Below, piece by piece: positions 17,819 to 60,562 of a DNA stretch of 64,000 nt. The stretch is taken from positions 4,095 to 68,094 of the forward strand of contig CAZHGD010000005.1 of assembly GCA_964531735.1 (NCBI GenBank), written 5' to 3'. The notes below the pieces were generated by a model. It was not told where the DNA came from and ran no database searches. It was given only the letters and a program-made list of their open reading frames with translations. Every line of letters starts with the position of its first letter. Positions within the stretch are counted from its first letter, which is position 1. The position numbers were made by a program, and so were the translations under genes. The DNA is from an uncultured Fimbriimonadaceae bacterium. Lineage in GTDB: Bacteria; Armatimonadota; UBA10988.

Positions 17819-18693
17819 TGAGCCTGTGCGCCGCGGTGCTGGTGGGGCTGGTCGCGCTGTGGCTGCTGGCCTCGGCCGTGGGCGCGGCGTTCGTCCTGCG
17901 CCCGTGGACCTGGCCGGTGCGTGAGCGAGCGATGCCGGCGGGTCAGGTGGGCCAGTCGGTGCAGTTCACCGCGGCGGACGGCACCGCACTCGACGGCTGG
18001 TACTTCGATGCGCCGGCGGCCCGCGGGGCGGTCGTGCTGGCCCATGGTGCGTTCGAGAACCGTCTGGGCGTGCTCGACTGCCTGCCGCCGCTGGCCGCGG
18101 CGGGCCTGGCGGTGCTGTCGTTCGACTTCCGGGCGCGCGGCCGCAGCGGTGGGCGCCGCTCGACCATCGGCTGGCGCGAGACCGACGATCTGCTGGCCGC
18201 GGTGGCGCGGGCGCGCGAGCTGTGCTCCGGCCGGCCAGTCGGCATCATGGGCTTCTCGCAGGGCGCCGCGGCGGCGCTGATGGCCGCCGCGCGCGACGGC
18301 GCCATCGCCGGGGTGGTCGCCGACAGCGCCTACGACCGGCTCGACCGCACGCTGGACCGGCACCTGCGCACCATCTTCCCGGTGGCGACGGCCCTCCTCG
18401 GAGCGCCGAGTCGGTGGCTGATCGTGCGCGGGCTGGGCGTCGATCCGGCCACGGTCTCGCCGCTGGCGGCGGCGGCCACGCTGAGCGGTCGTCCACTGCT
18501 GCTGATCCACGGCACCGGCGACTTCATGTGCGAGCTGGCGGGCAGCCAGCGCCTGCAGGCGGCGGCGGGCCCGTCGTGCGAGCTGTGGACGGTGCCGCGA
18601 GCCCGGCACACGAAGGCCCGGCAGCGGTGCCCCGCGGACTACTGGCAGCGCGTCGGCGCGTTCTGGGAGCGGGTCCTCAGGCCCGCGGGTTGA
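17818..18693 (+). CDS. membrane-anchored alpha/beta-hydrolase
   Basis: The start was refined to MSLCAAVLVGLVALWLLA (ATG overlapping the enolase gene's stop). GFSQG nucleophile elbow. The ORF-track extension back to 17380 overlaps the enolase gene. Confidence 0.75.
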   Translation: MSLCAAVLVGLVALWLLASAVGAAFVLRPWTWPVRERAMPAGQVGQSVQFTAADGTALDGWYFDAPAARGAVVLAHGAFENRLGVLDCLPPLAAAGLAVLSFDFRARGRSGGRRSTIGWRETDDLLAAVARARELCSGRPVGIMGFSQGAAAALMAAARDGAIAGVVADSAYDRLDRTLDRHLRTIFPVATALLGAPSRWLIVRGLGVDPATVSPLAAAATLSGRPLLLIHGTGDFMCELAGSQRLQAAAGPSCELWTVPRARHTKARQRCPADYWQRVGAFWERVLRPAG

Positions 18694-21577: not shown

Positions 21578-22987
21578 ATGCCATCGGACGCTTTGGTGGA
21601 GTGCGTATCCGGCGGGCTGACGCCGGTGGGTCGGTTGGCCACGAAGACGTCGGCCGAGATTGGCGCCTCGTGCTTCTCGGTCGGCGTCGAGACGCTCGAC
21701 CGCGGCATGTGGGACTTCGACCGCGGGCTGCCGGCCATCGTGCCACTGGGAGCCAAGTGGGCTCGGGTGCAGACCGGCTGGGGCAAGTGCGAGACCACGC
21801 GCGGCGTCTACGACTTCGCCTGGCTCGACCACATTGTCGATGCCCTGCTGGCGGCCGGCATCGAGCCGTGGTTCAACGTGGGCTACGGCAACCAGCTCTA
21901 CCTGCCGGACGCGCCGCACCCCACCGCGGTCGGCTGGACGCCGATCCACGACGAGGGCGCGCGCGCCGGCTGGGCCGGCTTCACCGCGGCGCTGGCGCAG
22001 CACTTCGCCGGGCGCGTGAGCTGGTACGAGGTGTGGAACGAGCCGGACATCTCGGCCTTCTGGACGCCTTACGAGTCCACGCCGGAGAGCTACACCGACC
22101 TGGCGATCCTGACCGCGCAGAGTCTGCGCCGCGGCGATCGGAACGCCAAGGTGGTCGGCGGCGCGGTGGCCGCGGCGCTCTACCACCGTGGGCTGGAGTG
22201 GATCCACGGCTGCTTCGAGCACGGCCTGGGCGAGCACATCGACGCCTTCAGCTTCCACCAGTACACGCCGACGCCCGAGCGCGAATACGAGACCATCGCG
22301 CCGTCGCTCAAGGCTCTGGTACACAGCTATCGCCCGGGTCTGCCGATCTGGCAGGGCGAGTCGGGCGCGCCGTCGAAAGCGGTGCCAGGTCAGGCGCTGG
22401 CCGACTGCGTCTTCGACGAGGATCGGCAGGCTCGCTGGAACACGCGGCGAGCGCTGCTCGACCTGCGGCACGGGATGACGCTGAGCGCGTTCTTCTGCGC
22501 CGCCGACTTCCAGTTCTACATCGTCAAGGACCAGTTGGTGGAGAAGGAGTACTACTTCGGCCTGCTGGCGGGCAAGGAGTTCCGGCCGAAGCCCTCGTTC
22601 TACGCGGCGCAGAGCCTCTGTACGCTGTTTGCCGGCGACATTCGCCGCGCCGACGAGGCCAACCCGGTGCTGCGTCTGCCGGCTGAAGCGAACCCGAGCG
22701 AGGCGCGCGCGGTGGTCTTCGAGACCAGCTACGGGCCGTTGCTGGCGTACTACCAGGCCCACCACATGATGCAGCCGCTGACGCCGGCGGCCGGTGAGCT
22801 GTCGGTCTGGCTGCCGCACCGCTGGGAGCTGCGCGAGCCGGTGCTGATCGACCCGATCAGCCAGCGCGCCTACGCGGTGCCGAGCGAGCCGGCGAAGGCC
22901 GGCGTGCAACGCTGGCGAGTGCCGGTGGGCGACTGGCCGCTGCTGCTGGGCGAACGGGCGCGGCTGCCGTTGGTGGCGAGGTCCTGA
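21578..22987 (+). CDS. glycoside hydrolase, clan GH-A (GH5/GH39-like)
   Basis: WYEVWNEPD (acid/base NEP motif) and IWQGESG (candidate nucleophile Glu). GGGGAGA SD. No signal peptide. Confidence 0.75.
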   Translation: MPSDALVECVSGGLTPVGRLATKTSAEIGASCFSVGVETLDRGMWDFDRGLPAIVPLGAKWARVQTGWGKCETTRGVYDFAWLDHIVDALLAAGIEPWFNVGYGNQLYLPDAPHPTAVGWTPIHDEGARAGWAGFTAALAQHFAGRVSWYEVWNEPDISAFWTPYESTPESYTDLAILTAQSLRRGDRNAKVVGGAVAAALYHRGLEWIHGCFEHGLGEHIDAFSFHQYTPTPEREYETIAPSLKALVHSYRPGLPIWQGESGAPSKAVPGQALADCVFDEDRQARWNTRRALLDLRHGMTLSAFFCAADFQFYIVKDQLVEKEYYFGLLAGKEFRPKPSFYAAQSLCTLFAGDIRRADEANPVLRLPAEANPSEARAVVFETSYGPLLAYYQAHHMMQPLTPAAGELSVWLPHRWELREPVLIDPISQRAYAVPSEPAKAGVQRWRVPVGDWPLLLGERARLPLVARS

Positions 22988-23138
22988 CACCGGGGCGGCG
23001 CGGGCGCCCTCGCGGGAGGGCACCCGCGCCACCGCCGTGATGGACGAGCAGAATCTCGCCGGCCGCCGAGATTCCACTGGAACAAACGTTCGCTTTGCGC
23101 TACCCTCCGAGCAACGCCGGGCACGGAGGGTACTGACG

Positions 23139-24059
23139 ATGATCCTCTCGGTCAGCCGGAAGACCGACATTCCGACCTTCTACGGTCAGTGGTTTCGCAA
23201 TCGGTTGCGCGCGGGCTACTGCAAGACCGTCAACGCCTACAACCGCCGCCAGCATCGGACCGTCTCGTTGCGGCCGGGCGATGTCGATGGGTACGTGTTC
23301 TGGACCAAGAACTGCGGGCCGTTCTTCGACGCGCTGGACGAGGTCCACGAGACCGGAGTGCCGTTCGTCGTCCACTACACCGTCAACCCGTACCCGCGGG
23401 CGATCGAGCGTGCGGTGGTGGACACGGCGCGCGCGGTGCGGCATTGCCACACCGTGGCGCAGCGGTACGGGCCGTTGTCGCTGGTCTGGCGGTACGACCC
23501 GGTGATCGTCTCGGAGCTGACGCCGCCCGAGTGGCATGTGCGCGAGTTCGCCAACTTGGCCGCACAACTCGAGGGCTGCTGCGACGAGGTGGCCACCAAG
23601 TTCGTCAATCCTTACCGCAAGACGCGCCGCGGTCTGGACCAGGTGGCCGCGGAGGAAGGCTGCCGCTGGTGGGACCCGCCGGCGGACGAGAAGGCGGAGC
23701 TGCTGCAACGGTTGGCCGTCATCGCCGCGCGGCACGGCCTGGCGCTGCGCACCTGCTGCCAGACCGCGCTGCTGGGCAACGGCGTGGAGCCGGCGATCTG
23801 CATCGACGCGGCCCGGCTGACCGCCATCAGCGGACGGGCCTTCGCCGCGCCGAAGCGGCCGATTCGGGCCGAATGCCGCTGCGCCGCGTCGCTCGACATC
23901 GGCGAGTACGACACCTGCCCGCACGGCTGCGCCTACTGCTACGCCGTGCAGCGGCGGCCCGTGGCCATCGCCCGGCACCGGCAACACGATCCGCTGGGCG
24001 AGTACCTGTTCCGGCCCGAGACGGTCGCGGCCGAGACGGAGCAGTTGGCGCTGTTCTGA
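23139..24059 (+). CDS. DUF1848-family protein with a C-terminal radical-SAM-like Cys cluster
   Basis: MILSVSRKTDIPTFYGQWF is the canonical DUF1848 N-terminus. C-terminal CPHGCAYC (Cx3Cx2C). GGAGG lies 9 nt upstream of ATG 23139. The ORF-track start at 23037 is an N-terminal extension. Confidence 0.8.
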   Translation: MILSVSRKTDIPTFYGQWFRNRLRAGYCKTVNAYNRRQHRTVSLRPGDVDGYVFWTKNCGPFFDALDEVHETGVPFVVHYTVNPYPRAIERAVVDTARAVRHCHTVAQRYGPLSLVWRYDPVIVSELTPPEWHVREFANLAAQLEGCCDEVATKFVNPYRKTRRGLDQVAAEEGCRWWDPPADEKAELLQRLAVIAARHGLALRTCCQTALLGNGVEPAICIDAARLTAISGRAFAAPKRPIRAECRCAASLDIGEYDTCPHGCAYCYAVQRRPVAIARHRQHDPLGEYLFRPETVAAETEQLALF

Positions 24060-24665: not shown

Positions 24666-24767
24666 CAACCATCTCCATGGGGTCGGCGACCCACCGTCAC
24701 CATAGAACATCTGTTTGCACTTCGTCAAGAGCCAATTCCCAACAACATGGTGGTTGCGACCAATCGT

Positions 24768-24796
24768 GTTGACACGGTGGCGGCGAGGTGGTACGG
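24768..24796 (+). promoter_or_regulatory. sigma70-like promoter TTGACA-N17-TACGGT in the divergent sigma/LexA-like intergenic region
   Basis: Hexamers read directly, about 40 nt upstream of ATG 24835. Confidence 0.3.
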
Positions 24797-24834
24797 TAGG
24801 CCGCTGCGGGGATGGGTCGGTAAGGTGCCAAGCG

Positions 24835-25566
24835 ATGGGTGAAGAGGCCAACGGCGGCGACCTGCATATCGGGCGGAACATTGACTCGCTGCAGCGGCAG
24901 TTGGGGGTCAGTGACGAGGATATGCTGGCGGAGCTGGGGCTGAGCTACAACCGCTTCTGGGACATGAAGCGACGGGAGTGGGCCCAGAAGCGCACCGTGG
25001 CGCAGGTGGCGGCAGCGCTGTCGCGCCTGTCGGGGGTGGCGGTGCAGCCCGACCAGGTGATGACCGGGCGGCTACGGCCGGAGGACTTCGGCCGGCGGGC
25101 GGTGGCCGAGTTCCTGCGCCGGGCGCAGGAGCTGGACCCGGCGGACGGCCTGCCGAACGGCGATGGCGTGCGCCTGCCGCGGCTGCATCTGGGCTCGTTG
25201 CCGGCGGGTCCGGCCGAGACGTTCCAGGCAGCCGGCTCCGACCTGGTGGTGCGGGCCGATCCGGGCGACTTCGTGGTCACCGCCGACGGCGACTGCATGT
25301 TGCCCACGCTGGGCCACGGCGACGAGCTGGTCTGCGTGTTCACCGAGCAGGCCGACGACGGGCAGTTGGCCGTGGTCAGCTACGCGGATGAGGGCGGCCT
25401 CTGGCAGAGCGGCGTCAAGCGGGTCCGCCGCGATGGCGACCGGCTTTGGCTGTCGTGCGACAATCTCGGCGCCGATTCGCTGGGCCAGCGCCGCTATCCG
25501 GACATTCATCCGGCGGAGCTGCGAATTCATGGTATCGTGGTTGGACTTTGGCGCGCGCTGCGCTAG
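24835..25566 (+). CDS. XRE-HTH / S24 (LexA/UmuD/CI-like) autopeptidase-family regulator with Cys at the nucleophile position
   Basis: The C-terminal domain aligns to UmuD/LexA: GDCM (versus GDSM), LGHGDELVCV, GVKRV (the catalytic Lys), and IHGIVVGLW. The N-terminal HTH is IDSLQRQLGVSDEDMLAELGLS. The Cys codon is TGC at 25294-25296. Confidence 0.75.
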   Translation: MGEEANGGDLHIGRNIDSLQRQLGVSDEDMLAELGLSYNRFWDMKRREWAQKRTVAQVAAALSRLSGVAVQPDQVMTGRLRPEDFGRRAVAEFLRRAQELDPADGLPNGDGVRLPRLHLGSLPAGPAETFQAAGSDLVVRADPGDFVVTADGDCMLPTLGHGDELVCVFTEQADDGQLAVVSYADEGGLWQSGVKRVRRDGDRLWLSCDNLGADSLGQRRYPDIHPAELRIHGIVVGLWRALR

Positions 25567-26558: not shown

Positions 26559-27681
26559 ATGGTTGACGCCCTGAAGCAACGGTACGACGCCCTGACCCAC
26601 CGCACCGCGGAAATGGGAGGGTATCTTTGACCTGGCTTCACGCCGGGCCCGGATCGACGAACTGAATGAGCGCACGCTGGCGCCCGGGTTCTGGGATGAC
26701 CAGCAGGCGGCCCAGGACACGCTGAAGGCGTTGGCCAAGGACAAGGCCTACCTCGAGCCTTGGGATGAGCTGGCCGGCCACCTCGACGACGTGGCGGTGA
26801 TGATTGAGTTGGCCGAGGAGGACGCCGAGGAGGCGACCGAAGCCGAGGCCGAGGCCGAGTTGACCGTCGCCGAGCAGTTGCTGGCGCAACTCGAAGTCGC
26901 GGCCATGCTGGGCGGCCCCTACGACGACCACGACGCGATTGTGGAGCTCTCCGCCGGCGCCGGCGGCAACGACGCCTGTGACTGGGCCGAGATGCTGTTC
27001 CGCATGTACACGCGCTGGGCCGAGCGCCAGCGGTTCAAGCCCGAGGTCATCCAGGTCTCGGAGGGTGAGGAAGCCGGCCTACGCTCGGCCACGCTACGCA
27101 TCTCGGGCCGCAACGCCTACGGCCTGTTGCGCGGCGAAGGCGGGGTCCATCGGCTGGTGCGCATCAGCCCGTTCGACTCGAACGCCCGGCGGCACACCTC
27201 GTTTGCCGGCGTCACCGTCATGCCCGATGTGGCCGACGACATCAACATCGAGATCGACGAGGCCTACCTGCGCGTGGACACCTACCGCAGCAGCGGCGCC
27301 GGTGGCCAGCATGTCAACAAGACCGACAGCGCGGTGCGGTTGACGTACCAGCCGCCGGAGCTGGACCGGCCGCTGGTGGTCTCGTGCCAGAACGAGCGCA
27401 GCCAGCACAAGAACAAGTCGACCGCGATGAGCGTGCTCAAGGCGAAGCTCTACGAGATCATGCAGCGCCAGCAAGCCGAGCACCTGTCCGACCTGCGAGG
27501 CAAGGTGGAGGAGTTCGCCTGGGGCAACCAGATCCGCAACTACGTGCTGCACCCCTACCGCATGGTCAAGGACTTGCGCACCGAGGTGGAGACCGGTGAC
27601 ACCGACGGCGTCCTCGACGGTGACCTCGACCGGTTCATCGAGAGCTACCTGCGCCAGACCGCCGGGCAGCACGCGGACTGA
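26559..27681 (+). CDS. prfB: peptide chain release factor 2, requiring a programmed +1 ribosomal frameshift: join(26559..26627, 26629..27681)
   Basis: Frame 0 reads MVDALKQRYDALTHRTAEMGGYL then TGA. The site is GGGAGGG-TAT-CTT-TGA-C at 26615-26631, the canonical RF2 autoregulatory shift site with an SD-like element 3 nt upstream. The +1 frame continues DLASRRARIDELNERTL... through SPFDSNARRHTSFA and GGQHVNKTDSAVRL. Confidence 0.92.
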
Positions 27682-27828: not shown

Positions 27829-28539
27829 TCAGTCGGCGGCTGACGTCCAGTTGGCGTAGGCCATCACGCGGGCCGTGGTGGTGCCCGCGGTGCCGGCGGC
27901 GATGCGCTGCCACTTGACGTGGCCATCCACAAAGGCGATGTTCATGCCTTCGTTGTGCGGGAAGACCAGGTTCCGGGTCTGGTCCCAGGTGTACCCGCAG
28001 CACATGCGGCAGTTCATCTCCAACACCGTGATGGTGCCGGCCGGGTCGCCGATGCTGGCGTCCTTCTGCGGCGTCTCGGGCCGCGCTGCGATCGGCCCTT
28101 GGTTGGCCTGGGCCAGCACGGCGCCGGCGGCGTCCAGCCGGTTGGTGTTGACCCCGTAGCCGGGCGGCGTCGTGCCGGCGCCACGCCCGGTGGTGCCAGG
28201 CTCACAGCTCGCCGCCGGCAAGCCGTAGTTGGTTGACGGACACGAGAAGATCTGGATGTTCTTGATGTACGGGCTGGCCACTTCGCGCCAGTTGGTGTTG
28301 GCGCGCGGGTCTGGCGACACGGTACAGCCCTGCCACCACGCCTTCATGAAGGTCTGGTCGTAGTCGCTCACGTACTGCAGAATGGCCAGCGCCATCTGTT
28401 TCTCGTTGGACTGGCAGCTCGACTGCCGCGCCTTCTCGCGCGCTTTGGCAAACACGGGGAACAGGATGGCTGCCAGAATCGCGATAATGGCGATGACGAC
28501 CAGCAGCTCGATCAGCGTGAAACCGCGTCGGTTTCTCAT
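27829..28539 (-). CDS. DUF1559 / H-X9-DG prepilin-like protein (paralog 2)
   Basis: [48 protein letters not shown] and [21 protein letters not shown] lies 6 nt upstream of ATG 28539. A TTGAAA-N17-TACAAC promoter-like pair sits at 28600-28628 on the minus strand. Confidence 0.85.
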
Positions 28540-28820
28540 CACCGTCCTCCTCTGGGCTCACCGGACCGAGGTCCGGCCGATCGTCCCTGCGCTGCCACGG
28601 TTGTAACCCATCGGCGACCACGTTTCAACACAAATCGGAAGGGCGCCTCCCGACCGCGCCGGGTCCGGCAACGCCGTCGGCACCCGGCGCCCGGTGTCGG
28701 AGCGGCTGCCGGGGGCCTGGCCGACCCGCAGCGTGCCTGACCCGGACCAGACGATCGTGGCCGGAGCGCCGACGCCAAGACGTCAGTCGAGTACCATAGC
28801 CCAGACGTGAGCAAACTCCC

Positions 28821-29816: not shown

Positions 29817-30503
<687 letters not shown>

Positions 30504-30715
30504 GACTGCACTCCTTCCATGCTGTCACGGCACGATGTCACACCCAAGCCCCGTCCTGCGAGTTCACCATTGTGCGCACGGTATTCCGGCGCTGTCTACC
30601 GGTTACCTGCCCGGGACGCCACGATTTCGACACCTTTGTACGTGCCGTGCCGCATCTGAGCCGACGGGAGGATCCCCAGGCCGGCAACCGAACGCCGTGG
30701 GCAGGAGACTGGGCC

Positions 30716-46129: not shown

Positions 46130-46254
46130 CGGCACACCAACTTCCTCTCGACGAGACAGTCTACCACCGCGGCGAAACACGCTATAGTACGGGGCGGCAG
46201 TGGTCAGGGCTGACCGAGGGCCACAGCTCGGCAGCCGCGGCCCCGGAACCGCCA

Positions 46255-46351
46255 GCGCTGAGGAGGCCGTAGGCCGTCTCGAAGCGCGGCGATGGGGCGC
46301 AGCCCACCTGGCCGCGCTTCGAGACGGGGCCTGCCGGCCCCTCCTCAGCGC
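46255..46351 (+). promoter_or_regulatory. ~97-nt near-perfect palindrome. Outer arms are 12 bp (GCGCTGAGGAGG / CCTCCTCAGCGC), inner arms 17 bp (CCGTCTCGAAGCGCGGC / GCCGCGCTTCGAGACGG), and the central spacer is 20 nt.
   Basis: Read directly. It lies in the divergent esterase/GRE intergenic region, about 75 nt upstream of the GRE start codon and downstream of a TATAGT box at 46182. Confidence 0.4.
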
Positions 46352-46424
46352 CGGCGGTTCGGGTGGGACCGGCCTGGTTGCGGCTCCGATCTCGACCCGC
46401 CGCAGTGGTCCGCCGGAGAGTTGC

Positions 46425-48566
46425 ATGGACGTCAACCGGTTCTGGCAGTTGGTGCATGTTTCGCGCCTGGAGGCGTGCCGCGAGGAGACGGGCCGGCCGG
46501 TACCGTTGAGCGAGGCGGCGGCGTTCGCGCGCGTGCTGCAACAGTTGCCGATTGCCGTCGGTCCGGGCGAGCGCCTGGCCACGCGGTTCGGCTGGGAATG
46601 CGCCGACGCCGACGAGCAGGCGCGGCTCCTGAAGCGCATCGAGGCCCTGCCGCCGGCACCCGCAGCCGAACCGGCGCCCGAGCTGTGGGCGCAGTTGCGG
46701 CAGTGGTACCACAGCTACCCCAGCGACGGCGGCGCGGCGCACACCACGGTGGACTACGAACAGGTCGTCAACCGCGGCGTGGTCGGCCTGCTGACCGACC
46801 TGAGCGCCGACCTGGCCGAGGCCGAGGGCGAGCGGCGGGTGTACCTGGAGGCCATGTGGCTGGCACTGTCGGCGCTGCTCGACTGGGCCGAGCGTTACGC
46901 GCGCTGGGCCGAAAGCGCCGCGCGCCGGGCGGCGCCGGACGAGGGCGAACGGTTGCGGGGCGTTGCCGACCGGCTGCGCGCGGCGCCGCGCGGCCCGGCG
47001 CGCACGTTCACCGAGGGCCTGCAAGCGGTCTGGCTGGTCCACGTGGCCGTGGGCATCTCGGAGCTCGCCGGTTGGTCGCTGTCGCTCGGGCGGCTCGACC
47101 AGTACCTGTTCGGTCTGTATCTGGCCGACCTGGCGCGCGGCGTGCCCGAATCGGCGCTGGCCGCTGACCTGGGCGAGTTCTTCCGCGCACTGAACAGCTT
47201 CTTCAGCGATCCGGCCTGCAACGTCAACCTTGGCGGCGCCGACGAGGCCGGACGCGACCAGCTCAACCCGCTGTCGGAGCTGATCGTGCGCGTGGCGCAG
47301 CGCGAGCGGCTCGAAGGGCCGATTCTGGCGCTGCGCGTGCACGACGGCCTGGCCGACGAGGACCTGGCGCGGTTCATCGATCCGGACCTGTTCGCGATGG
47401 GCCAGCCGACGTTCTATGGCGAGGAGCCCTGCCGCGCGGCGTTGCGGCGGCGCGGCGTGCCGGCCGACGAGGTCCACCAGTGGGTGGCCAACAGTTGCAT
47501 GGGCCTGATGATGCCGGGCCAAGAGTGGTCCGACATGTGGGGCTCGGTGGTCAACGTCCTGCTGCCGCTGGAGCTGGCGCTCAACGGTGGCGAGCCGTTC
47601 GCCCACCCGGCACCGTTTGCGTTGCGCACGCCGACGCCCGACAGCTACGCCGACTTCGAGGTGCTGTTCGAGACGGTGGCCGCGCACCTCGACCAGTACA
47701 TCGATCTGCTGTGCGTGGAGACCGAGGCGCGCACCGCGCGTCACGGCCGCGAGCAGCCGAACCCGTTCGTCTCAGCGCTGCTGGCCGACTGCCGCCAGCG
47801 CGGGCTCGATCGGTTGCTCGGCGGCTGCCGCTACCGCACGGTGATCGTCGAGGCGTTCGGCCTGGTCAACGTGGCCGATGCGCTGTACGCCATCGAGCAG
47901 TTGGCCTTTGTCGAAGGGCGCTTCACGCTGCCCGAACTGGTGGCCGCGGCGCGCAGCGACTATGCCGAGCGGCCCGACATCCTCCACGCAGTGCGGCGCT
48001 TGCCCAAGTACGGCAACGGCGAGCCGGCGGTGGATGCGATGGCGCGGCGGCTGGCGGCGCGGTTCGCCGCCGCGGTGGCGCGGCACTCGCGCGAGCGCGT
48101 GACCTACCTGCCGTCGTTCCACACGCTGGCCGCGCACCTCTCGGCGGGCGCGCTGCTCGGCGCCAGCCTGGACGGTCGGCGCGCCGGCGAGCCCCTCGCC
48201 AAGAACGTCGGTTCGACGCCGGGCCGGGCCACTCACGGCCACACCGCGCTGATGGCCTCGGCAACCACCATTGACCAGGCCGCGTTCGGCGGTGGCCAGG
48301 CGCTGGACATCTCGGTGTCGCCCGACTTGTTGCGCACGCCGACTGACCGGGGCAAGTTCGGCGCGCTCTTGCGCGGGTACTTCCGTCAAGGCGGCCTGCA
48401 GGTGCAGGTGAACGGCGTCACCGCGGCGCAACTGCGCGCGGCGATGGCCGAGCCGGCAGCGCACCGCGACCTGCTGGTGCGCAAGGCGGGCTACACCACG
48501 CGCTTCGTGACGCTGGGGCGCGTGGAGCAGGAAGAGCTGACGCGGCGGCTGGAGGCTGGGCTGTAG
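46425..48566 (+). CDS. glycyl radical enzyme, PFL2/glycerol-dehydratase-like family, divergent (713 aa)
   Basis: The C-terminus GGLQVQVNGVTAAQLRAAMAEPAAHRDLLVRKAGYTTRFVTLGRVEQEELTRR matches the Gly-radical domain (…RDLIVRVAGYSAYFVELS…QDEIISRT pattern; radical Gly at codon 689, 48489-48491). TFTEGLQAVWLVHVA is also GRE-like. Variant motifs: the Cys-loop reads NSCMG (no Glu two residues after Cys), and GNGEP replaces GNDDD. The start was refined to MDVNRF, with GGAG 6 nt upstream. Confidence 0.8.
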   Translation: MDVNRFWQLVHVSRLEACREETGRPVPLSEAAAFARVLQQLPIAVGPGERLATRFGWECADADEQARLLKRIEALPPAPAAEPAPELWAQLRQWYHSYPSDGGAAHTTVDYEQVVNRGVVGLLTDLSADLAEAEGERRVYLEAMWLALSALLDWAERYARWAESAARRAAPDEGERLRGVADRLRAAPRGPARTFTEGLQAVWLVHVAVGISELAGWSLSLGRLDQYLFGLYLADLARGVPESALAADLGEFFRALNSFFSDPACNVNLGGADEAGRDQLNPLSELIVRVAQRERLEGPILALRVHDGLADEDLARFIDPDLFAMGQPTFYGEEPCRAALRRRGVPADEVHQWVANSCMGLMMPGQEWSDMWGSVVNVLLPLELALNGGEPFAHPAPFALRTPTPDSYADFEVLFETVAAHLDQYIDLLCVETEARTARHGREQPNPFVSALLADCRQRGLDRLLGGCRYRTVIVEAFGLVNVADALYAIEQLAFVEGRFTLPELVAAARSDYAERPDILHAVRRLPKYGNGEPAVDAMARRLAARFAAAVARHSRERVTYLPSFHTLAAHLSAGALLGASLDGRRAGEPLAKNVGSTPGRATHGHTALMASATTIDQAAFGGGQALDISVSPDLLRTPTDRGKFGALLRGYFRQGGLQVQVNGVTAAQLRAAMAEPAAHRDLLVRKAGYTTRFVTLGRVEQEELTRRLEAGL

Positions 48567-48579
48567 AAAGGGGCCAGGC

Positions 48580-50154
48580 ATGGCGCGATGGCTGGGTGTG
48601 TGTCTGCTGCTGCCGCTGGTGGCAATAGCGGCTGAGAGGACCGTGCGACCGGCGCTGACCGCCGACACCGCGCCGCAGTGGCGGTTCGTCAGCGGGCGCT
48701 GGCAACTGGCCGACGGCGTGCTGCGCCAGACGCAGCCCGACCGGCTCGGCGCCGCGGTGCTGGCCGGTCCGGCGTTCACCGACAGCGAGCTGTCGGTCGA
48801 GTTCCGGATCGCGGCCGAGGGCCAAGGCGTGCGCGCGGCGGCGGTGCTGTTCCGCGCCACCGGCACGCTGACCTACTACTGGCTGCACCTCGACTCGAAG
48901 CACAGCCAGGCGATCCTGGTGCGCCGCACGCCGCACAACCCGTGGATCGAGATCACGCGCCGCCGCGGCGTGGCCATCGCGTCGGAGCAGTGGCACCGCG
49001 TGCAGGTGGGCTGCGTGGGTGGTCACGTTACGGTGCGACTGGACGACCGCGAGATCCTGCAAGCCGACGACACCAACCTGCCGGCCGGCTACGTCGGCCT
49101 GGGCACCAGCCAGGGCCAAGTGGAGTTCCGCACGCTGGTGGTGAAAGGACAGACCGCCATGGACACACCGCTGCGCGACGAGCAGCCGCCGTTCCGCGTC
49201 ATCTCACTGGGTGCTGCGGCCGGGCCGTACCAGGCGTTTCCCGATGTCTGCCGCTGCGCCAACGGCGACCTGTTGGCCGTGTTCTACGCCGGCTATGGCC
49301 ATGTCTCGCTGCCGACGGCCGCGTGGCCGAAGGGCGGCCGCATCGGCATGGTGCGCTCCAGCGACGACGGCCGAACCTGGACCGAGACGGCGGTGTTGTT
49401 CGACAGCGACCTGGACGACCGCGATCCGCACATCGCGCAGATGAGTGACGGCAGCCTGGTGTGTACGTTCTTCCAGTACTGGCGCGACGGCAACCAGACG
49501 CGGTTCGTCACCTGCCTGACGCGGTCGCGCGATGGTGGCCGCACGTGGGACACCACCGCACAGCGGATCAGCCCCGAGGGCTGGGCGGTCTCGGCACCGG
49601 TGCGTGAGTTGCGCGATGGCACCTGGCTGCTCGGCGTCTACACCGAGTCGGGCGGCCACGCCTGGGGCGGTGTGCTGCGCTCCACCGACCGCGGCGCCAC
49701 CTGGAGCGCACCGATCCCCATCGGCCAGGAGGCCAACCTGCCGCTGGACGCCGAGACCGACGTGATCGAGTTGCGCGACGGCACCATCCTGGCGGCGCTG
49801 CGCAGCAGCAAGGTCAATCTGCACGTGGCCACCAGCGCCGATAAGGGCCTGACCTGGACGCCGGTCAAGGACGCCGGCTTCCCCGGCCATGCGCCGCACC
49901 TCTACCGTCTGAGCACGGGCGAGATCCTGATGACGCACCGGCTGCCGGCCACGGCGGCGCACCTCAGCCGCGACGACGGCCGCACCTGGCAAGGGCCGTA
50001 CCAGCTCGACAGCGTCGGCGGCGCCTATCCGTCTTCGGTAGAGCTGCGCGATGGGAGCGTGTTGGTCATCTACTACGAAGAGGGCGAAGGCAGCGCGATC
50101 CGGGCACTGCGGGTGCGGGTGACCGCCCAGGGCGTGGAAGTGGCGGGGCCGTAG
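48580..50154 (+). CDS. secreted DUF1080 (3-keto-glycoside hydrolase-like jelly roll) plus BNR/Asp-box sialidase-like (GH33-type) protein
   Basis: Signal peptide MARWLGVCLLLPLVAIAA. Five Asp-box repeats (SSDDGRTW, SRDGGRTW, STDRGATW, SADKGLTW, SRDDGRTW). 13 bp after the GRE stop codon, with AAAGGGG SD. Confidence 0.85.
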   Translation: MARWLGVCLLLPLVAIAAERTVRPALTADTAPQWRFVSGRWQLADGVLRQTQPDRLGAAVLAGPAFTDSELSVEFRIAAEGQGVRAAAVLFRATGTLTYYWLHLDSKHSQAILVRRTPHNPWIEITRRRGVAIASEQWHRVQVGCVGGHVTVRLDDREILQADDTNLPAGYVGLGTSQGQVEFRTLVVKGQTAMDTPLRDEQPPFRVISLGAAAGPYQAFPDVCRCANGDLLAVFYAGYGHVSLPTAAWPKGGRIGMVRSSDDGRTWTETAVLFDSDLDDRDPHIAQMSDGSLVCTFFQYWRDGNQTRFVTCLTRSRDGGRTWDTTAQRISPEGWAVSAPVRELRDGTWLLGVYTESGGHAWGGVLRSTDRGATWSAPIPIGQEANLPLDAETDVIELRDGTILAALRSSKVNLHVATSADKGLTWTPVKDAGFPGHAPHLYRLSTGEILMTHRLPATAAHLSRDDGRTWQGPYQLDSVGGAYPSSVELRDGSVLVIYYEEGEGSAIRALRVRVTAQGVEVAGP

Positions 50155-50328
50155 GCGTGAGGCGCCGCGGACTCTGTGGTGTCAAGGTCTGACGGATTGA
50201 GCTGATCGGTCGGATCTGTCGGGTCGGCCCGGTCCACGAGGCCGCCCGTGACCAGCGTTGTGTGCCGCCAGCTTGCCCCGCACGCCGGCATGTGCTACAC
50301 CTTCGGCGACGTCCACAGGAGCCTGCTC

Positions 50329-51576
50329 ATGCCGTGCGACTGCTCACCCGGTGACACCTCGCGACGCGAGTTCCTCCTCACCGCCGGCGCGCTGATGGCC
50401 ACGGCGGCGGGCGGCTTCGGGGCCGACCTCCCGGCGCGCGTCAAACAGGAGGGCCAGCGCACCTGGCTCGAGGGCAACGAGCCCTATCGGGTGCTGGAGC
50501 CGCTGTTCGAGGCCGTGCGCGTAGCGCTGGCCTACCGCGGCGAGCGCTACTCGCCAGCCTACGTGCAGGGCCTGTCGGGCGCGGCCTTCCGCATTGCCGG
50601 CATCTGCCCGTGCGCGCCGACGTGCAACAGCGCCATGGCGCCGGAGAAGCTGGCCGAGCTGCTCGGGTACGAGGTCAAGCTGATGATGCTCGACGAGCCG
50701 CAGCCGGGGCAGATCAAGGCGCTGGCCGACGCCATGCGCGCCAACCGCGGCGCCCTGCCGAGCGATGAGCAACTGGCCAAGCCCGAGTTGCGCGAACTGC
50801 GGCGGCGACTGCTGGCCATCCTCGCGGCCGTCAAGGACGAGGTCCGGGCCGGCCGGCCGGCGGTCGTCTGGAACGCCTTCACCAAGGCCGAGTTCGACGT
50901 GGTCACCGGCTTCGACGACGCCAAGGGCACCTTCGTCGGTCGCGGGTCGTACGCCGGGCTGGGCGGCGAGCCGGCCAGCGCGCCGCAGACGGCCACGCTG
51001 GGCGCGGTCTACATCGGCGGTCCGCCCGGGGCCATCCTGATCGGGGCCAAGGTGCGTGAACTGGAGGCGCGCACCGCCGAACTGGCTGCGCTCAAGGAAG
51101 CGGTGCGGCACGGCCGGTCGGACCTCAACCAGGACAGCCTCGGCACCAAGAAGTGGGCCATGCTGGAAGGACTGCGCTGCTACGACCGCTGGATCCAGGA
51201 CTTCCGCAGTCCGACCAAGAAGCGCGACCTGGGTGACTCCTACTGCTTCAGCATCTTGTGCAGCACGCGCGCGGCGGCGGCCGAGTTTGTACGCGGGATT
51301 GCGCCGCGCCACCCGGCCATGCAGACCGACCTGGCGGCCGCGGCCGAGCGGTTCGCCGCTGAAGCCGCGGCCCTCAAGCACGGCGCGCCGTTGCTGGGCT
51401 GGAAAGCGCCGGCCGGACCGGACGCCCGGCGCAATGAGCAGGTCGTCGACGTGCTGTTCGCCGCGCGCGAGCACTACGCGGGCGGCATTGTCTGCCTGGA
51501 GCGGGCGCTGGGCCTGCCAGCCCCGGTCGCCAACGGTCGGCGCCGCAGCTTTGGTCTGCGGACGCGCCGCCGGTAG
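50329..51576 (+). CDS. Tat-exported hypothetical protein, Cys-rich (CPCAPTC)
   Basis: SRREFLLTAGALMATAAG twin-arginine signal. AGGAG lies 7 nt upstream of ATG 50329. Function not recognised. Confidence 0.65.
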   Translation: MPCDCSPGDTSRREFLLTAGALMATAAGGFGADLPARVKQEGQRTWLEGNEPYRVLEPLFEAVRVALAYRGERYSPAYVQGLSGAAFRIAGICPCAPTCNSAMAPEKLAELLGYEVKLMMLDEPQPGQIKALADAMRANRGALPSDEQLAKPELRELRRRLLAILAAVKDEVRAGRPAVVWNAFTKAEFDVVTGFDDAKGTFVGRGSYAGLGGEPASAPQTATLGAVYIGGPPGAILIGAKVRELEARTAELAALKEAVRHGRSDLNQDSLGTKKWAMLEGLRCYDRWIQDFRSPTKKRDLGDSYCFSILCSTRAAAAEFVRGIAPRHPAMQTDLAAAAERFAAEAAALKHGAPLLGWKAPAGPDARRNEQVVDVLFAAREHYAGGIVCLERALGLPAPVANGRRRSFGLRTRRR

Positions 51577-56832: not shown

Positions 56833-57912
56833 TCAGCGCCAGGCGCGGCGACCTTCGTCGAGGACCAGCAGGTACTGCGACACGGGCATGTAGTCGGTCA
56901 GCGAGTTGCCGGTGCCCAGCGCCCAGTAGCCGCCGGCGGTGCAGCGGGCGATCTTCTCGCGCGCATAGGCTCGCAGGTGCGGCTCGTCCAGCCGGCAGAT
57001 GGCGTCCACGTCCAGCCCGCCGAGCGGCGTCACGCGCCGGCCGTACTGCGCCTGGAAGTCCTCGACGGGCAGGATGCTGTCCTCGAACGAATGCTTGGCG
57101 TCGATGCGGCAGGTGTCGATCAGGTCGTCGTAGATGGCGCCCAGGTTGCCGCACGAGTGCAGGATGAACGGCTTGCCGGCCGCGTGGGCCGCCGCGGCCT
57201 GCGCGGTGTAGATGGGCAAGACCAGGCGGCGCAAGGCGTCGGGTGGCAGAAAGGTGGCGGTGCGGAAGCCCAGGTCGTCGCCCTGGCGCAGCGCGCCCAC
57301 CGCGTCCATGGTGGCCAGTTGCCGGCAGGCGCTGACGTGCAGCCGGCCGAGCTGGGCGAACACGCGCTCGAGCAGCTCCGGGTTGTCGTGGAGCAGCAGC
57401 GACAGGCCCATCACACCGAGCAGATAGGTGGCCCACTCGAACGGCCCGGCGCAGACGCCGCCGACGATCTTGGCGCCGTCGGGCAGCAGCGCGGCGACGG
57501 TCTCGAAGTGGCGGAACTCGATCGGGTCGGCTTCGTCGGGCCAGGGATAGGCCGCGAAGTCGGCCAGGGAGCGAATGCACACGGTGGCCTCGCTCTGGTG
57601 CGAGACCGCGCCGGCCACGTGGTGGGCCGTCGGCAGCGTCAGCCGCGGCGGAATCTCCATCGGCACACAGTCGAAGCCCAGGCCGAGCCAGAAGTCGACG
57701 TAGATGCGCCAGTACTCGGTGTCCTGCGGCGACATCCGGTCGAACGCCGTGCCGGTGCGCCGCGCGATGAAGCCCGGGCTGGCCAGGTGCTCATAGCACG
57801 GCAGATGCGTCGGCGTGCCCTCGCGGCGCAGCACCTTGAGGAACTGGTCGAAGTCTGGTTGGTGAGCGGTCACACGCGTCTCCCGTCGATCAGGGCAGTT
57901 CCAGCAGACCAC
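56833..57912 (-). CDS. uroporphyrinogen-decarboxylase (URO-D)-fold protein of the MtaA/CmuA methyltransferase-like family
   Basis: QFLKVLRREGTPTHLPCYEHL matches the family N-terminus (…EGKPVDRVPV…). TIM-barrel length about 360 aa. The GTG start overlaps the upstream beta-helix gene by 23 nt. Confidence 0.7.
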   Translation of the reverse strand: MVCWNCPDRRETRVTAHQPDFDQFLKVLRREGTPTHLPCYEHLASPGFIARRTGTAFDRMSPQDTEYWRIYVDFWLGLGFDCVPMEIPPRLTLPTAHHVAGAVSHQSEATVCIRSLADFAAYPWPDEADPIEFRHFETVAALLPDGAKIVGGVCAGPFEWATYLLGVMGLSLLLHDNPELLERVFAQLGRLHVSACRQLATMDAVGALRQGDDLGFRTATFLPPDALRRLVLPIYTAQAAAAHAAGKPFILHSCGNLGAIYDDLIDTCRIDAKHSFEDSILPVEDFQAQYGRRVTPLGGLDVDAICRLDEPHLRAYAREKIARCTAGGYWALGTGNSLTDYMPVSQYLLVLDEGRRAWR

Positions 57913-60562
57913 CGCCGTCGAGGTTGGTCGTGGGTCCCAGCGCGCCGGCCCAGACCAGCCACTCGCCGGTCTCGGTGCGCAGCGCGCCTAGGTTGAAGCC
58001 CAGCTTCAGGCCCGGCCGCGGCACGATCCTGGCGGCCGCGAGTGGAATCGCCCACTCGGCGCTCCACTGCCCGCGTTCGACGCGCGCGGCGTAGTGCGTC
58101 TGCCGCGCCAGGTCGGCCAGCAGGTCGGCGGGCGCGCCGGTCTCCGGGTTGGCTTCGTGGCGGCCGTTCGGATAGGCGCGGAAGCCGAAGGTCGGCCCGG
58201 GCCGGCTACCGGAGGCCTCGCGGAAGCACACTTCGGCGCCGTCCACGCCGCCCCAGGCGCCGCCGACCTTGAGCTTGTCGGCATCCGACAGCGGCACGGT
58301 CACCCGCACGTGGAGCCGGGCGCCGTCGAAGGCCACCTGCGCGGCGGCCGGTCGGCTGGCGATGGGCTGTCGTCCCGGGTCCTCGGCCAAGGCCAACGGC
58401 GTGCCGGACCAACCGGCGGCCACCGGCGCGGTAACGCGCACGGCCTTGACCCGCGCCTTCGGGTGCAAGGCCAACGGCGGCGGTGGTGGCGGCGCGGGCG
58501 GCGCGGGCCGCACCGTGTGCTGCACCGGCCAAGTGGCCCGCGTGTCGCTGGCGTAGAGGCCGATCCGCTCCACCGGGATCCGCTTGAAGCCCAGCTTCCA
58601 GACCGGCGAATCGGGCCCCAGACGGTAGTCGTCGCGGGCCGCATCCACGAAGCGCGGATCGCCGTCGCTGAAGTTGTCCTTGACCACGGCCGTCTGGGCG
58701 GCGCGGCCCTCCAGCTTCAGCCACTGGCCACCGGCGCGCACGTTGCGCGTGACCTGGTTGTACTTGGCGAGGCCCGGCTCGTCGTCGAGGATGTCGGCCA
58801 GGTGCGGGTACCGCCCACGCCAAAGGTCGCTCTGGTAGGGCACCGCGGCCAGGCCCTGCAACAACTGGCCCTTCTCGGCGGGCCAGAACCCGGTGGTGGT
58901 CACGTTCACGGCCGGCGTGCAGTCGACAAACACGTTGTTGTCAATCACGTTGTCGCGGCCACCATGCACGAACACCGCGCCGGCGCCGCCGCGGACCCGC
59001 GCGAGGACATTGCCGTAGACGGTGGTGCCGCTGATGAAGTTGTCCAGGTAGATGCCGTTGCAGCCCTGGCCGAGGTGGCCGTAGATGTCATGGAGGTAGT
59101 TGTGCCGGAACACCTGGCCGCGCCGGGTCCAGTCGTGGTAGGCGTAGATGACGCCCGCGTCGTTCGAGTGGTAGACCACGCTGTGGAACTCGCAGAACTC
59201 GATCACATGGTCGTTGCCCGAGAACAGCACGGCGGCGTGGGGTCCGTCGTGGATCAGGCAGTGGCGCAGGAGGTTGCCGACGCCTTCGAGCGCCACGGCC
59301 GGCTTGTACATCGGGTCCCACCGGCCATAGCGGTGGATGTGGCAGTTGTCCGCCACGTGCCGCGCCGGGGTCAGCGTGCGGCGGTCGCCGCCGTCGAGCA
59401 GAACACCGCCGTCGCCGGTGTCGACCACATCGCAACCGAGCAGCAGATGGCGTTCGCCACCGGCCACGCGCACGCCCCAGCCGCCGACGTTGCGGATCGT
59501 GCAGCCGACCAACTGGCACCGCGCGCCACCGCTCACCTGCACGCCGGTATCCTGCGCGCATTCGAGCGTCAGGCCGCGCAGCGTGACGTAGGAGACGTCC
59601 TTGGTGGTGACCAGGTTGGGCAGGACCGAGACCTGCACCGAGGTGTCGTCGAGCGCCGCGGGCGGCAGGAAGTAGAGCAGCCCCCGAGCGCGGTCGAGGT
59701 ACCATTCGCCCGGCTCATCCAGCTCGCAGAGCAGGTTGTAGGCATAGTACCACTGGCCTTTGCGCCAGCCGAACTCGTGCGCGCGGCCGTCGAGCGTCAA
59801 CTCGTGAGTGGCCGGGTCGATGGCCTTGACGCGGTAACGCTGGTCGGCCCAGTCCCAGAACCAGTAGCCATGAACCATGGCGTCCGGCTCGCCGGCCCAG
59901 CGCGCGGGGCGGTCGCCGTCGTAATGGAATCGCGGCACCTTGCTGCCCTTGATGCCGAAGATGTTCCAGCCGTCGGCGACGCTGATGTCGGCGATGTGAG
60001 TGAAGCCCTGGTTCGGCCAGCGCGCCAACGTCATCGGCCGACGATCGCAGAACAGCTCCAGGCCGGCGTCGGAGTTGGCCCAGGTGTCGGCCGACTTCAT
60101 GGCGCCGAACTGGCGGAGGCCCAACGCCGTCAGGTCCGCCTGGCGCACCCGCTGGCGCACCGCCGGGTCGAGGCGGGCCAGTACCGCCGGAGCCTTGACC
60201 GGCTGCCAGCCGGTGACCACCTTGCCGCCGATGACGCGCACGGTGGCGCCGGGCGCCGCGCGGTAGCAGATCGGCGCGTCGGCGGTGCCCGAGTCCTGAA
60301 CCTCCAGTGCCAGGGGCGCGGACAGCTCGTAACGGCCCGCCGCCAGTTGGATGGTGACGCCGCCGCGTGGCAACGGCCCGGCCGCCTTCAGCTTGCGGAC
60401 GGCGTTGCGAGCGCCGAGCGGCGTGGCCAGCGGGCCGTCGGTGCGGGCCGCGTTCGGCGTGTCGGCGCGACCCGACCAGGCGTCGTTGCCCGTCGGCGAC
60501 ACATAGAGCCGCTGCGGCGCCGGCGCCAGCCAGCACAACGCAGCCAGGAGAGCCGTGGTCAT
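57890..60562 (-). CDS. secreted right-handed parallel beta-helix protein (pectate-lyase-fold polysaccharide lyase/hydrolase-like)
   Basis: MTTALLAALCWLAPAPQRLYVSPTGNDAWSGR is the characteristic N-terminus of the family. Repetitive GxxxG/N beta-helix coils. GAGGA SD. Confidence 0.8.
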   Translation of the reverse strand: MTTALLAALCWLAPAPQRLYVSPTGNDAWSGRADTPNAARTDGPLATPLGARNAVRKLKAAGPLPRGGVTIQLAAGRYELSAPLALEVQDSGTADAPICYRAAPGATVRVIGGKVVTGWQPVKAPAVLARLDPAVRQRVRQADLTALGLRQFGAMKSADTWANSDAGLELFCDRRPMTLARWPNQGFTHIADISVADGWNIFGIKGSKVPRFHYDGDRPARWAGEPDAMVHGYWFWDWADQRYRVKAIDPATHELTLDGRAHEFGWRKGQWYYAYNLLCELDEPGEWYLDRARGLLYFLPPAALDDTSVQVSVLPNLVTTKDVSYVTLRGLTLECAQDTGVQVSGGARCQLVGCTIRNVGGWGVRVAGGERHLLLGCDVVDTGDGGVLLDGGDRRTLTPARHVADNCHIHRYGRWDPMYKPAVALEGVGNLLRHCLIHDGPHAAVLFSGNDHVIEFCEFHSVVYHSNDAGVIYAYHDWTRRGQVFRHNYLHDIYGHLGQGCNGIYLDNFISGTTVYGNVLARVRGGAGAVFVHGGRDNVIDNNVFVDCTPAVNVTTTGFWPAEKGQLLQGLAAVPYQSDLWRGRYPHLADILDDEPGLAKYNQVTRNVRAGGQWLKLEGRAAQTAVVKDNFSDGDPRFVDAARDDYRLGPDSPVWKLGFKRIPVERIGLYASDTRATWPVQHTVRPAPPAPPPPPPLALHPKARVKAVRVTAPVAAGWSGTPLALAEDPGRQPIASRPAAAQVAFDGARLHVRVTVPLSDADKLKVGGAWGGVDGAEVCFREASGSRPGPTFGFRAYPNGRHEANPETGAPADLLADLARQTHYAARVERGQWSAEWAIPLAAARIVPRPGLKLGFNLGALRTETGEWLVWAGALGPTTNLDGGGLLELP

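Follow-up and report, generated by a model that had tools for sequence, protein, structure and literature searches.

A probably functional glycyl-radical enzyme with a non-canonical Cys loop in a glycan-degradation locus of an uncultured Fimbriimonadaceae bacterium

We analyzed a 64,000-nucleotide stretch of the genome of an uncultured Fimbriimonadaceae bacterium (GenBank assembly GCA_964531735.1, contig CAZHGD010000005.1, positions 4,095 to 68,094 of the forward strand), referred to here as the window. A gene at 46425..48566 on the forward strand, stop codon included, encodes a 713-residue glycyl-radical enzyme (GRE) whose Cys loop reads Asn-Ser-Cys-Met-Gly (NSCMG), a form that it shares with a large set of homologs. 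The reading that we favor, with a probability of roughly 0.65, is that we are dealing with an intact GRE, probably a functional one, of a distinct subfamily, here called NSCMG, which would be activated in trans and whose likely role would be radical C-H activation of a small glycan-derived molecule.

The open frame around the gene extends from 46200 to 48566 (+). Translation from the ATG at 46425 gives the 713-residue protein, whose N terminus (M-x5-W) and length agree with those of the homolog family, and an identical protein is recorded at NCBI. The frame is intact over its full length and its codon usage is native, with a GC content at third codon positions of 0.90, similar to that of the neighboring genes; the closest homologs are 58% identical to the protein across 100% of its length. 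Pfam searches detected a PFL-like domain (PF02901; 2.1e-85, profile positions 150-644) and a Gly_radical domain (PF01228; 1.9e-15). An AlphaFold2 model for which 48 homologs served as input had a mean pLDDT of 92.3, and Foldseek aligned it with more than 40 GRE chains, among them propanediol dehydratase (PD), glycerol dehydratase (GD), PflD, CutC and HypD, at TM scores of 0.84 to 0.91 and identities of 20 to 26%. Since both Pfam domains are present and the model superposes on known GREs, with barrel, Gly loop and Cys loop all in place, the assignment to the PFL-like division of the GRE superfamily is solid. A preliminary description of this DNA, made from the sequence alone, had proposed such an enzyme; its C-terminal match is not spurious, as the Gly_radical domain was recovered and the model matches PD and GD at a TM score of about 0.9.

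Comparison with the curated NCBIfam models places the protein at a distance from every assigned GRE family. The top model was TIGR01774 (PFL2/GDH), which has a cut-off of 678.2 bits and with which the protein scored 290.6. The equivalog models (HypD, CutC, HpfG/HpsG, PflD-like, HPAD, IAD and PFL) gave at most 250 bits against cut-offs of at least 1000, and TIGR01255 (formate lyase) gave 60 bits against a cut-off of 994. The earlier placement as a divergent PFL2-like GRE thus holds, with scores that remain under every curated family cut-off.

Every motif quoted in the preliminary description was found where it had been placed, including EGLQAVWLVHVA at residues 197-208 and HRDLLVRKAGYTTRFVTLGRVEQEELTRR at residues 680-708, which forms the C-terminal glycyl-radical region. 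The latter contains the Gly loop V-R-K-A-G689-Y-T (48477..48497, +) with the radical-storage glycine, which aligns with VRVAGYS of PD and GD. The Cys loop N356-S-C358-M-G360 (47490..47504, +) aligns with G-C433-V-E435 of GD and with C438/E440 of PD, and the segment G-N-G-E-P at residues 530-534 (48012..48026, +), the family form of GND[DI]D, aligns with KYGNDID of PD. Among 114 full-length homologs, Cys358, Gly360 and Gly689 are each present in 114/114, and the five residues N356, S357, C358, M359 and G360 are invariant save for a single Asn-to-Ser change. The equivalent of Gly689 is kept in all 124 aligned sequences, family members and paralogs together, and both Gly689 and Cys358 are among the 66 invariant columns of a 48-sequence alignment spanning 39 to 58% identity. 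Gly532 occurs in 84 of the 114 homologs, the family consensus at this site being G-N-G-D. What had been taken for altered landmark motifs of one gene are therefore traits of a family, in which NSCMG is invariant and GNGD is the consensus. The Gly-radical domain had also been called textbook; the domain is there, and the adjective does not quite suit it, since its loop reads R-K-A-G-Y against the canonical R-V-x-G-Y. In the family this loop has the form V-R-[I; minorities K, L, M, R]-[A/G]-G-[Y/F]-[S/T], and the position of Lys687 is occupied by Lys in 9/114 homologs and by Ile in 95/114.

Among 5.8 billion proteins searched, 190 matched the query, and the best 120 of these share 39 to 63% identity with it; nearly all full-length members among these 120 are 640 to 770 residues long. 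The few named matches come from metagenome-assembled genomes (MAGs) of Armatimonadetes, Lentisphaerae and Planctomycetota and are labeled "hypothetical," "PFL family" or, automatically, with names such as "formate C-acetyltransferase." Scanning one genome per GTDB species yielded 200 relatives, and the clade comprises at least 190 clusters at 90% identity. The loci of 80 of these relatives were fetched, and the neighborhood counts given below cover 83 loci. Those fetched include loci of Armatimonadia, Lentisphaeria/Victivallales (including Victivallis vadensis), Phycisphaerae, Planctomycetaceae, Verrucomicrobiia, Kiritimatiellia, Binataceae and one deltaproteobacterium; many others are from gut Clostridia (Ruminococcus, Oscillospiraceae, Lachnospiraceae, Faecalibacterium, Blautia and the cultured Ructibacterium gallinarum DSM 107454).

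A neighbor-joining tree was built from the 124 GRE sequences of these loci together with Escherichia coli PflB, PflD and YbiW; in it, all sequences with a [NST][ST]CM[GN] loop formed one clade, apart from PflD/YbiW and from the co-located paralogs. The clade has two branches, one environmental (the Planctomycetes-Verrucomicrobia-Chlamydiae [PVC] group, Armatimonadota and others, the window protein among them) and one largely of Clostridia, in which one Armatimonadota locus (L040) also sits; the window protein itself sits on an unremarkable branch, as an intact gene would. By these alignments and this tree, the NSCMG sequences form a coherent, experimentally uncharacterized GRE subfamily. A search of the open literature, with subscription-only sources outside its reach, found no paper characterizing this clade and none on GREs in Armatimonadota or Lentisphaerae glycan loci, and a 2026 review notes that whole GRE clades are still without annotation.

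Two further groups of sequences were observed in the tree and the fetched loci. A sister subclade from five loci (L052, L061, L062, L067 and L069, with the GRE at about 10 kb in each) has the Cys loop [ST]-[ST]-C-M-N and the Gly loop V-R-I-G-G-H-S-R, so that His follows the radical glycine where other GREs have Tyr, Phe or Trp; an activase gene lies directly downstream in all five. A paralog family in Clostridia (L039, 5411-7201; L071, 12893-14899; L076, 14479-16485; also L078, L079 and L085) carries adjacent cysteines in S-A-C-C-T-F-D in a non-PFL context and has an unusual Gly loop, V-R-[LM]-Y-G-F-S-E, usually with an activase gene directly after it.

The substrate pocket of GD is reportedly lined by Tyr640, Tyr339 and Asp447. 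In a profile-PDB alignment at 21 to 26% identity, some active-site residues of GD are retained by the family and others are replaced. His106 (46740..46742, +) corresponds to His164 and Ser218 to Ser282, both invariant, and Cys358 corresponds to Cys433. The glutamate of the Cys loop, Glu435, is lost to Gly360. Asp447 is replaced by an invariant Trp372 (47538..47540, +) and Tyr640 by an invariant His566 (48120..48122, +), which lies inside an invariant P-S-x-H-T-L. His281 falls at position 217, where the family consensus is Ala and the window protein has Trp. Tyr339 has no counterpart, as it is situated in an 11-residue loop absent from the family; in this region the family has FGDAACAVNLGG, of which D262 and N268 are invariant.

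These replacements bear on the possibility that the enzyme is a divergent member of the known 1,2-eliminase/isomerase class that uses the same mechanism on a related substrate. This class includes GD, PD, HypD, CutC, IslA/IseG, HpsG, HplG, YbiW and PflD and thereby covers dehydratases of diols and glycerol, lyases of choline and isethionate, and isomerases of anhydro-sugar phosphates. The closest sequence and fold matches are PD, GD and PflD, the top NCBIfam model belongs to this class, and the equivalents of His164 and Ser282 are kept, all of which would be expected of such a member. However, the C-x-E motif is kept in all characterized C-O, C-N and C-S eliminases and in the three isomerases, and its glutamate, which hydrogen-bonds or deprotonates a substrate hydroxyl, is catalytically essential where tested (PMC13450708). 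The window protein has C-M-G at this place, as the preliminary description had correctly read it, and the family has Gly in 114/114; together with the invariant Trp in place of Asp447 and a score of 290 bits, far under the 678-bit cut-off of TIGR01774 and under all equivalog cut-offs, this makes a shared mechanism improbable. His164 of GD, the proposed general acid, protonates the leaving group (PMC13450708). The family would thus retain the acid (His) and be without the base (Glu), and one may speculate that His566 is a candidate replacement for the latter. The suggestion that the gene stands for uncharacterized GRE chemistry is plausible.

A GRE requires an activase, and none is encoded nearby. 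Pfam detected no Radical_SAM (S-adenosylmethionine), BMC (bacterial microcompartment) or EutN domain in about 40 open reading frames (ORFs) of high third-position GC content in the window. In tblastn searches of the window, the E. coli proteins PflA, PflC and YbiY, four activases cognate to family members and EutM/N/K/L likewise gave no match below E = 0.27, and the autonomous glycyl radical cofactor GrcA matched only the C terminus of the GRE itself (E = 5e-4). The two approaches agree with the earlier statement that activase, BMC shell and GrcA genes are absent from the window. An exact-sequence search with the GRE gene matched no indexed contig. Short Logan contigs matching neighboring proteins were obtained from runs SRR9878565 and SRR9860463, neither of which turned up in the literature searched, and no activase gene was present in the contig that reaches about 6.8 kb beyond the right end of the window.

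By tblastn and clustering, 31 of the 83 loci carry a YbiY/PflC-like gene, which in 19 of them directly abuts the GRE gene. It is present in 9/44 loci of the environmental branch (4/19 where at least 5 kb is available on both sides) and in 22/39 loci of the Clostridia branch (10/21 by the same measure). In L029, where the homolog shares 46% identity with the window GRE, the gene that follows it after 2 bp scored 322 bits, against a cut-off of 174, with TIGR02494, the "glycyl-radical enzyme activating protein" model. Because relatives carry such a bona fide activase, often directly downstream, the NSCMG family appears to be a normal, activase-dependent GRE family activated by a radical, and orphan and activase-linked copies are alike in the conservation of the Gly and Cys residues. 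An orphan GRE gene, with no activase nearby, is found in 35/44 environmental-branch loci; the absence that had been singled out as unusual is ordinary, and the window gene is an ordinary orphan member of the family.

Several Victivallales/Lentisphaerae loci (L020, L046, L048, L017 and L031) contain arrays of three to seven divergent GRE paralogs with one activase gene (L020, 3350-17508; L046, 7775-21390; L048, 2077-14144). The Cys loops in these arrays read NSCMG, VGCYE, STCVE, GGCTE, GGCQE and VGCCR, and in 11 loci an NSCMG gene occurs with a VGCYE paralog, the two abutting in most. Such arrays suggest that a single activase may act on several GREs whose genes lie some way from its own.

The alternative that the gene is a non-catalytic relic, a pseudo-enzyme in an aerobic organism devoid of an activase, was also raised in the preliminary description. 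It would account for the lack of an activase gene across about 71 kb, for a solitary copy without a partner paralog and for the unusual Lys687 in the Gly loop. With an activase missing so commonly from this branch, its absence here is no argument for a relic, and the 35 orphan loci are conserved to the same degree as the others. Lys or Arg at position 687 is also found in activase-linked Clostridia members (L043, L065, L074, L084 and L087). We regard decay as unlikely, given that Gly689 and Cys358 are conserved in 114/114 homologs and that these and 64 more columns are invariant across phyla, the window protein included, in an intact reading frame of native codon usage. The window gene is thus intact and probably functional.

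The favored reading, a functional NSCMG enzyme activated in trans, can be put as a sequence of steps. A PflC/YbiY-type radical-SAM activase encoded elsewhere in the genome, and possibly shared with other GREs, would, where oxygen is absent or scarce (anoxic or micro-oxic conditions), install the glycyl radical. From G689 it would move to C358, and this cysteine would then abstract hydrogen from a small substrate in the cytoplasm, most likely one derived from the glycans that the surrounding locus degrades. Acid/base assistance would have to be organized differently from that of the known eliminases and isomerases, because the Cys-loop glutamate and Asp447 are gone, His106 and Ser218 are kept and His566 stands in for Tyr640. 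It is conceivable that the reaction is a His-assisted C-O cleavage or isomerization, or a different chemistry altogether. The close spacing of the GRE gene and its downstream neighbor would reflect packing within a carbohydrate-active enzyme (CAZyme) island.

Some observations weigh against this reading. Neither the 64-kb window nor the additional 6.8 kb encodes an activase, and we infer activation in the host organism. The residue equivalences with GD come from sequence alignment at low identity. The 83 neighborhoods are so variable that about 8 is the most in which any one gene family other than the activase is shared, which does not allow the substrate to be deduced. Cultured Armatimonadota are mostly aerobes, an awkward setting for an oxygen-labile enzyme.

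A stronger version of the proposal would make the NSCMG clade a mechanistic class of its own among GREs, with a pocket that has given up the Cys-loop Glu and Asp447 and acquired an invariant His566 and Trp372, and in which a distal, shared activase acting in trans in Armatimonadota and PVC bacteria would enable an undescribed radical transformation of a glycan-derived sugar or sugar acid. We put this forward only tentatively, as a possibility that has the odds somewhat against it; if true, GRE chemistry would reach bacteria that degrade polysaccharides in the environment.

By Pfam, the window is a CAZyme island. It encodes glycoside hydrolases (GH129 with a CBM9 carbohydrate-binding module, GH32, GH39 and a GH42-like protein), a DUF4838 protein, a beta-helix protein and several esterases. 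Alongside these are GFO/IDH/MocA, xylose-isomerase-like TIM-barrel, enolase-superfamily dehydratase and SDR proteins and an FAD oxidoreductase that carries an F5/8 type C domain. An IclR regulator and three pseudopilin-like proteins with DUF1559 are encoded as well. Related loci contain GH2, GH38, GH43, GH78 and GH127, FGGY kinase, DeoC/LacD aldolase, GFO/IDH/MocA, SDR, Zn- and Fe-dependent alcohol dehydrogenases and AraC/DeoR/IclR regulators.

The locus had been described as aerobic-looking and of planctomycete type. Because release factor 2 (RF2) of the window is 79% identical to that of Armatimonadetes and Fimbriimonadaceae MAGs, and because the nearest GRE homologs come from Armatimonadota as well as Lentisphaerae, the host belongs to Armatimonadota and the locus is not planctomycetal. 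The gene content of the window decides for neither an aerobic nor an anaerobic lifestyle. Many family members are from strict anaerobes (Victivallis, Ructibacterium and gut Clostridia), and related orphan loci lie next to clearly anaerobic genes: L004 encodes FlpD/FrhB together with Fe-S proteins, and L005 encodes RACo. The prfB gene for RF2 (26596-27678, +) has an NCBI product of 316 residues, 88% of the open frame, and homologs of 350 to 375 residues; either the programmed +1 frameshift that prfB usually has or another start call could account for the short record. The three prepilin-type N-methylation and DUF1559 genes (1052-2245, 27832-28557 and 29820-30524, all on the reverse strand) probably gave rise to the planctomycete reading of the preliminary description and are here found in an Armatimonadota genome.

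The GRE gene is followed on the same strand by a gene (48580..50154, +) for a 524-residue protein in which Pfam identifies a DUF1080 domain (3keto-disac_hyd, 3-keto-disaccharide hydrolase-like) and a BNR_2 beta-propeller. Its N terminus (MARWLGVCLLLPLVAIAAE) resembles a signal peptide, and the 13-nucleotide spacer (AAAGGGGCCAGGC; 48567..48579, +) contains a purine-rich, Shine-Dalgarno-like AAAGGGG, so that the described link to a signal-peptide DUF1080-BNR gene is confirmed. No terminator-like site was predicted between the two genes, which are probably cotranscribed.

This arrangement could indicate a dedicated pathway in which the exported, sialidase-like enzyme frees a sugar that the GRE then transforms, and the tight spacing, common strand, Shine-Dalgarno-like sequence and lack of a terminator all fit such a pathway. 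Transcripts that mix cytoplasmic and secreted genes are, however, usual in CAZyme islands. In none of 82 other loci, whose neighborhoods vary greatly, does a homolog of the DUF1080-BNR protein lie closer than 10 kb to the GRE gene, and the BNR_2 genes of the P0026 locus lie 6 to 10 kb off on the opposite strand. We give a two-gene pathway little credence and consider the pairing probably incidental, not a conserved functional pair. It is absent from the 82 other loci and offers no basis for the sialic-acid-derived substrate that had been entertained.

Upstream, a divergent intergenic region (46130..46424) separates the GRE gene from an esterase gene that starts at 46129 on the reverse strand. 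It holds a near-perfect hairpin of 121 nucleotides (46243-46363) with two nested 24-nucleotide inverted repeats, ending 62 nucleotides before the GRE start, with a predicted RNA folding free energy of -107.7 kcal/mol (z = -7.5 relative to shuffled sequences). The hairpin occurs once in the window and in none of the related loci. Since a T-run is missing, it is not an intrinsic terminator; a leader or attenuator structure, or else an operator, is a possible role. No riboswitch or known RNA was detected upstream of the GRE gene at the Rfam gathering threshold, below which there were only matches to generic hairpins (microRNA precursor).

Three other genes of the window deserve mention. An ORF at 50248-51576 (+; 415 to 442 residues), located between the BNR and FAD-oxidoreductase genes, has no Pfam or NCBIfam match and begins with a twin-arginine-like N terminus (SRREFLLTAGALMATAAGG). 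A URO-D/MtaA-like gene (methylcobamide:coenzyme M methyltransferase-like) at 56836-57987 (-) has a counterpart in the P0026 locus (17324-18442), 5 kb from the GRE homolog. A DUF1848 ORF at 22848-24056 (+; Pfam 2e-83), upstream of an S24/LexA-like peptidase gene (24706-25563), has a C-terminal CPHGCAYC, a radical-SAM-like CX3CX2C motif and the only one in a coding-type ORF of the window. That this protein, 22 kb upstream of the GRE gene, or some other non-canonical partner provides the activation, or that the GRE is an oxygen-tolerant variant, is very improbable: DUF1848 is absent from 90 other loci and bears no similarity to GRE activases, so that we rejected it as an alternative activase, and the relatives of the window GRE use ordinary TIGR02494 activases.

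The features that had seemed most striking in this gene are thus ordinary (no activase nearby), incidental (the BNR neighbor) or unsupported (the aerobic host). The NSCMG clade is not categorically new; its size and its non-canonical catalytic loop make it of interest to GRE specialists. GREs catalyze chemically difficult anaerobic reactions, and each newly assigned clade has so far led to new metabolism, as in the conversion of choline to trimethylamine and in the metabolism of hydroxyproline, sulfonates and anhydro-sugars. The NSCMG clade includes glycan degraders from the environment as well as abundant Clostridia of the gut (Ruminococcus, Blautia, Faecalibacterium and Oscillospiraceae) and breaks the C-x-E rule that underlies motif-based prediction of eliminase and isomerase function. 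Activase-linked orthologs in cultured strains, such as those of Victivallis vadensis and Ructibacterium gallinarum, offer experimental handles, and assignment of the substrate would probably reveal an unrecognized anaerobic step in carbohydrate catabolism.

Among known systems, the B12-independent dehydratases, PD of Roseburia inulinivorans (5I2A/5I2G) and GD of Clostridium butyricum (1R8W), are the closest matches to the window GRE (phmmer, 1e-71; profile, 1e-124; Foldseek TM score, about 0.9). They share with it the 10-stranded barrel, Cys and Gly loops in register and the His164 and Ser282 equivalents, and they too use a PflC/YbiY-type activase, as do the relatives of the window GRE. Unlike them, the window GRE, at 22 to 26% identity, is about 80 residues shorter on the N-terminal side, has C-M-G in place of C-V-E, carries the Asp447-to-Trp, Tyr640-to-His and His281-to-Ala/Trp replacements, has a Tyr339 loop shorter by 11 residues and is not accompanied by microcompartment genes. 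In GRE microcompartment loci, BMC-H/BMC-P shell genes lie near the GRE gene, whereas Pfam and tblastn found none in the window. The formate lyases PFL and TdcE have two adjacent cysteines on the Cys loop (ACCVS in PflB), a pair that S357-C358 of the window GRE does not form.

The aminoacyl radical enzymes (AAREs; PMC11528403), a recent addition to the superfamily, are likewise non-canonical, functionally unassigned PFL-like branches whose contexts share little beyond the activase. In them, the radical Gly is replaced by Ala, Ser or Thr, whereas the NSCMG family and its co-located paralogs keep Gly; AAREs among the tandem paralogs were ruled out, since all of these carry Gly when aligned. The closest precedent for a sugar GRE is provided by the isomerases YbiW and PflD, which act on 1,5-anhydroglucitol-6-phosphate and anhydromannitol-6-phosphate (8ID7, 8ID0 and 8YJO). 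Their fold is similar (TM scores of 0.87 to 0.89), their substrates are derived from sugars and their genes reside in carbohydrate-catabolic loci with aldolases and kinases. In contrast to the window GRE, they keep C-x-E, with Glu443/Glu433 binding the C2 hydroxyl, and adjoin their activase, and in the neighbor-joining tree they fall outside the NSCMG clade.

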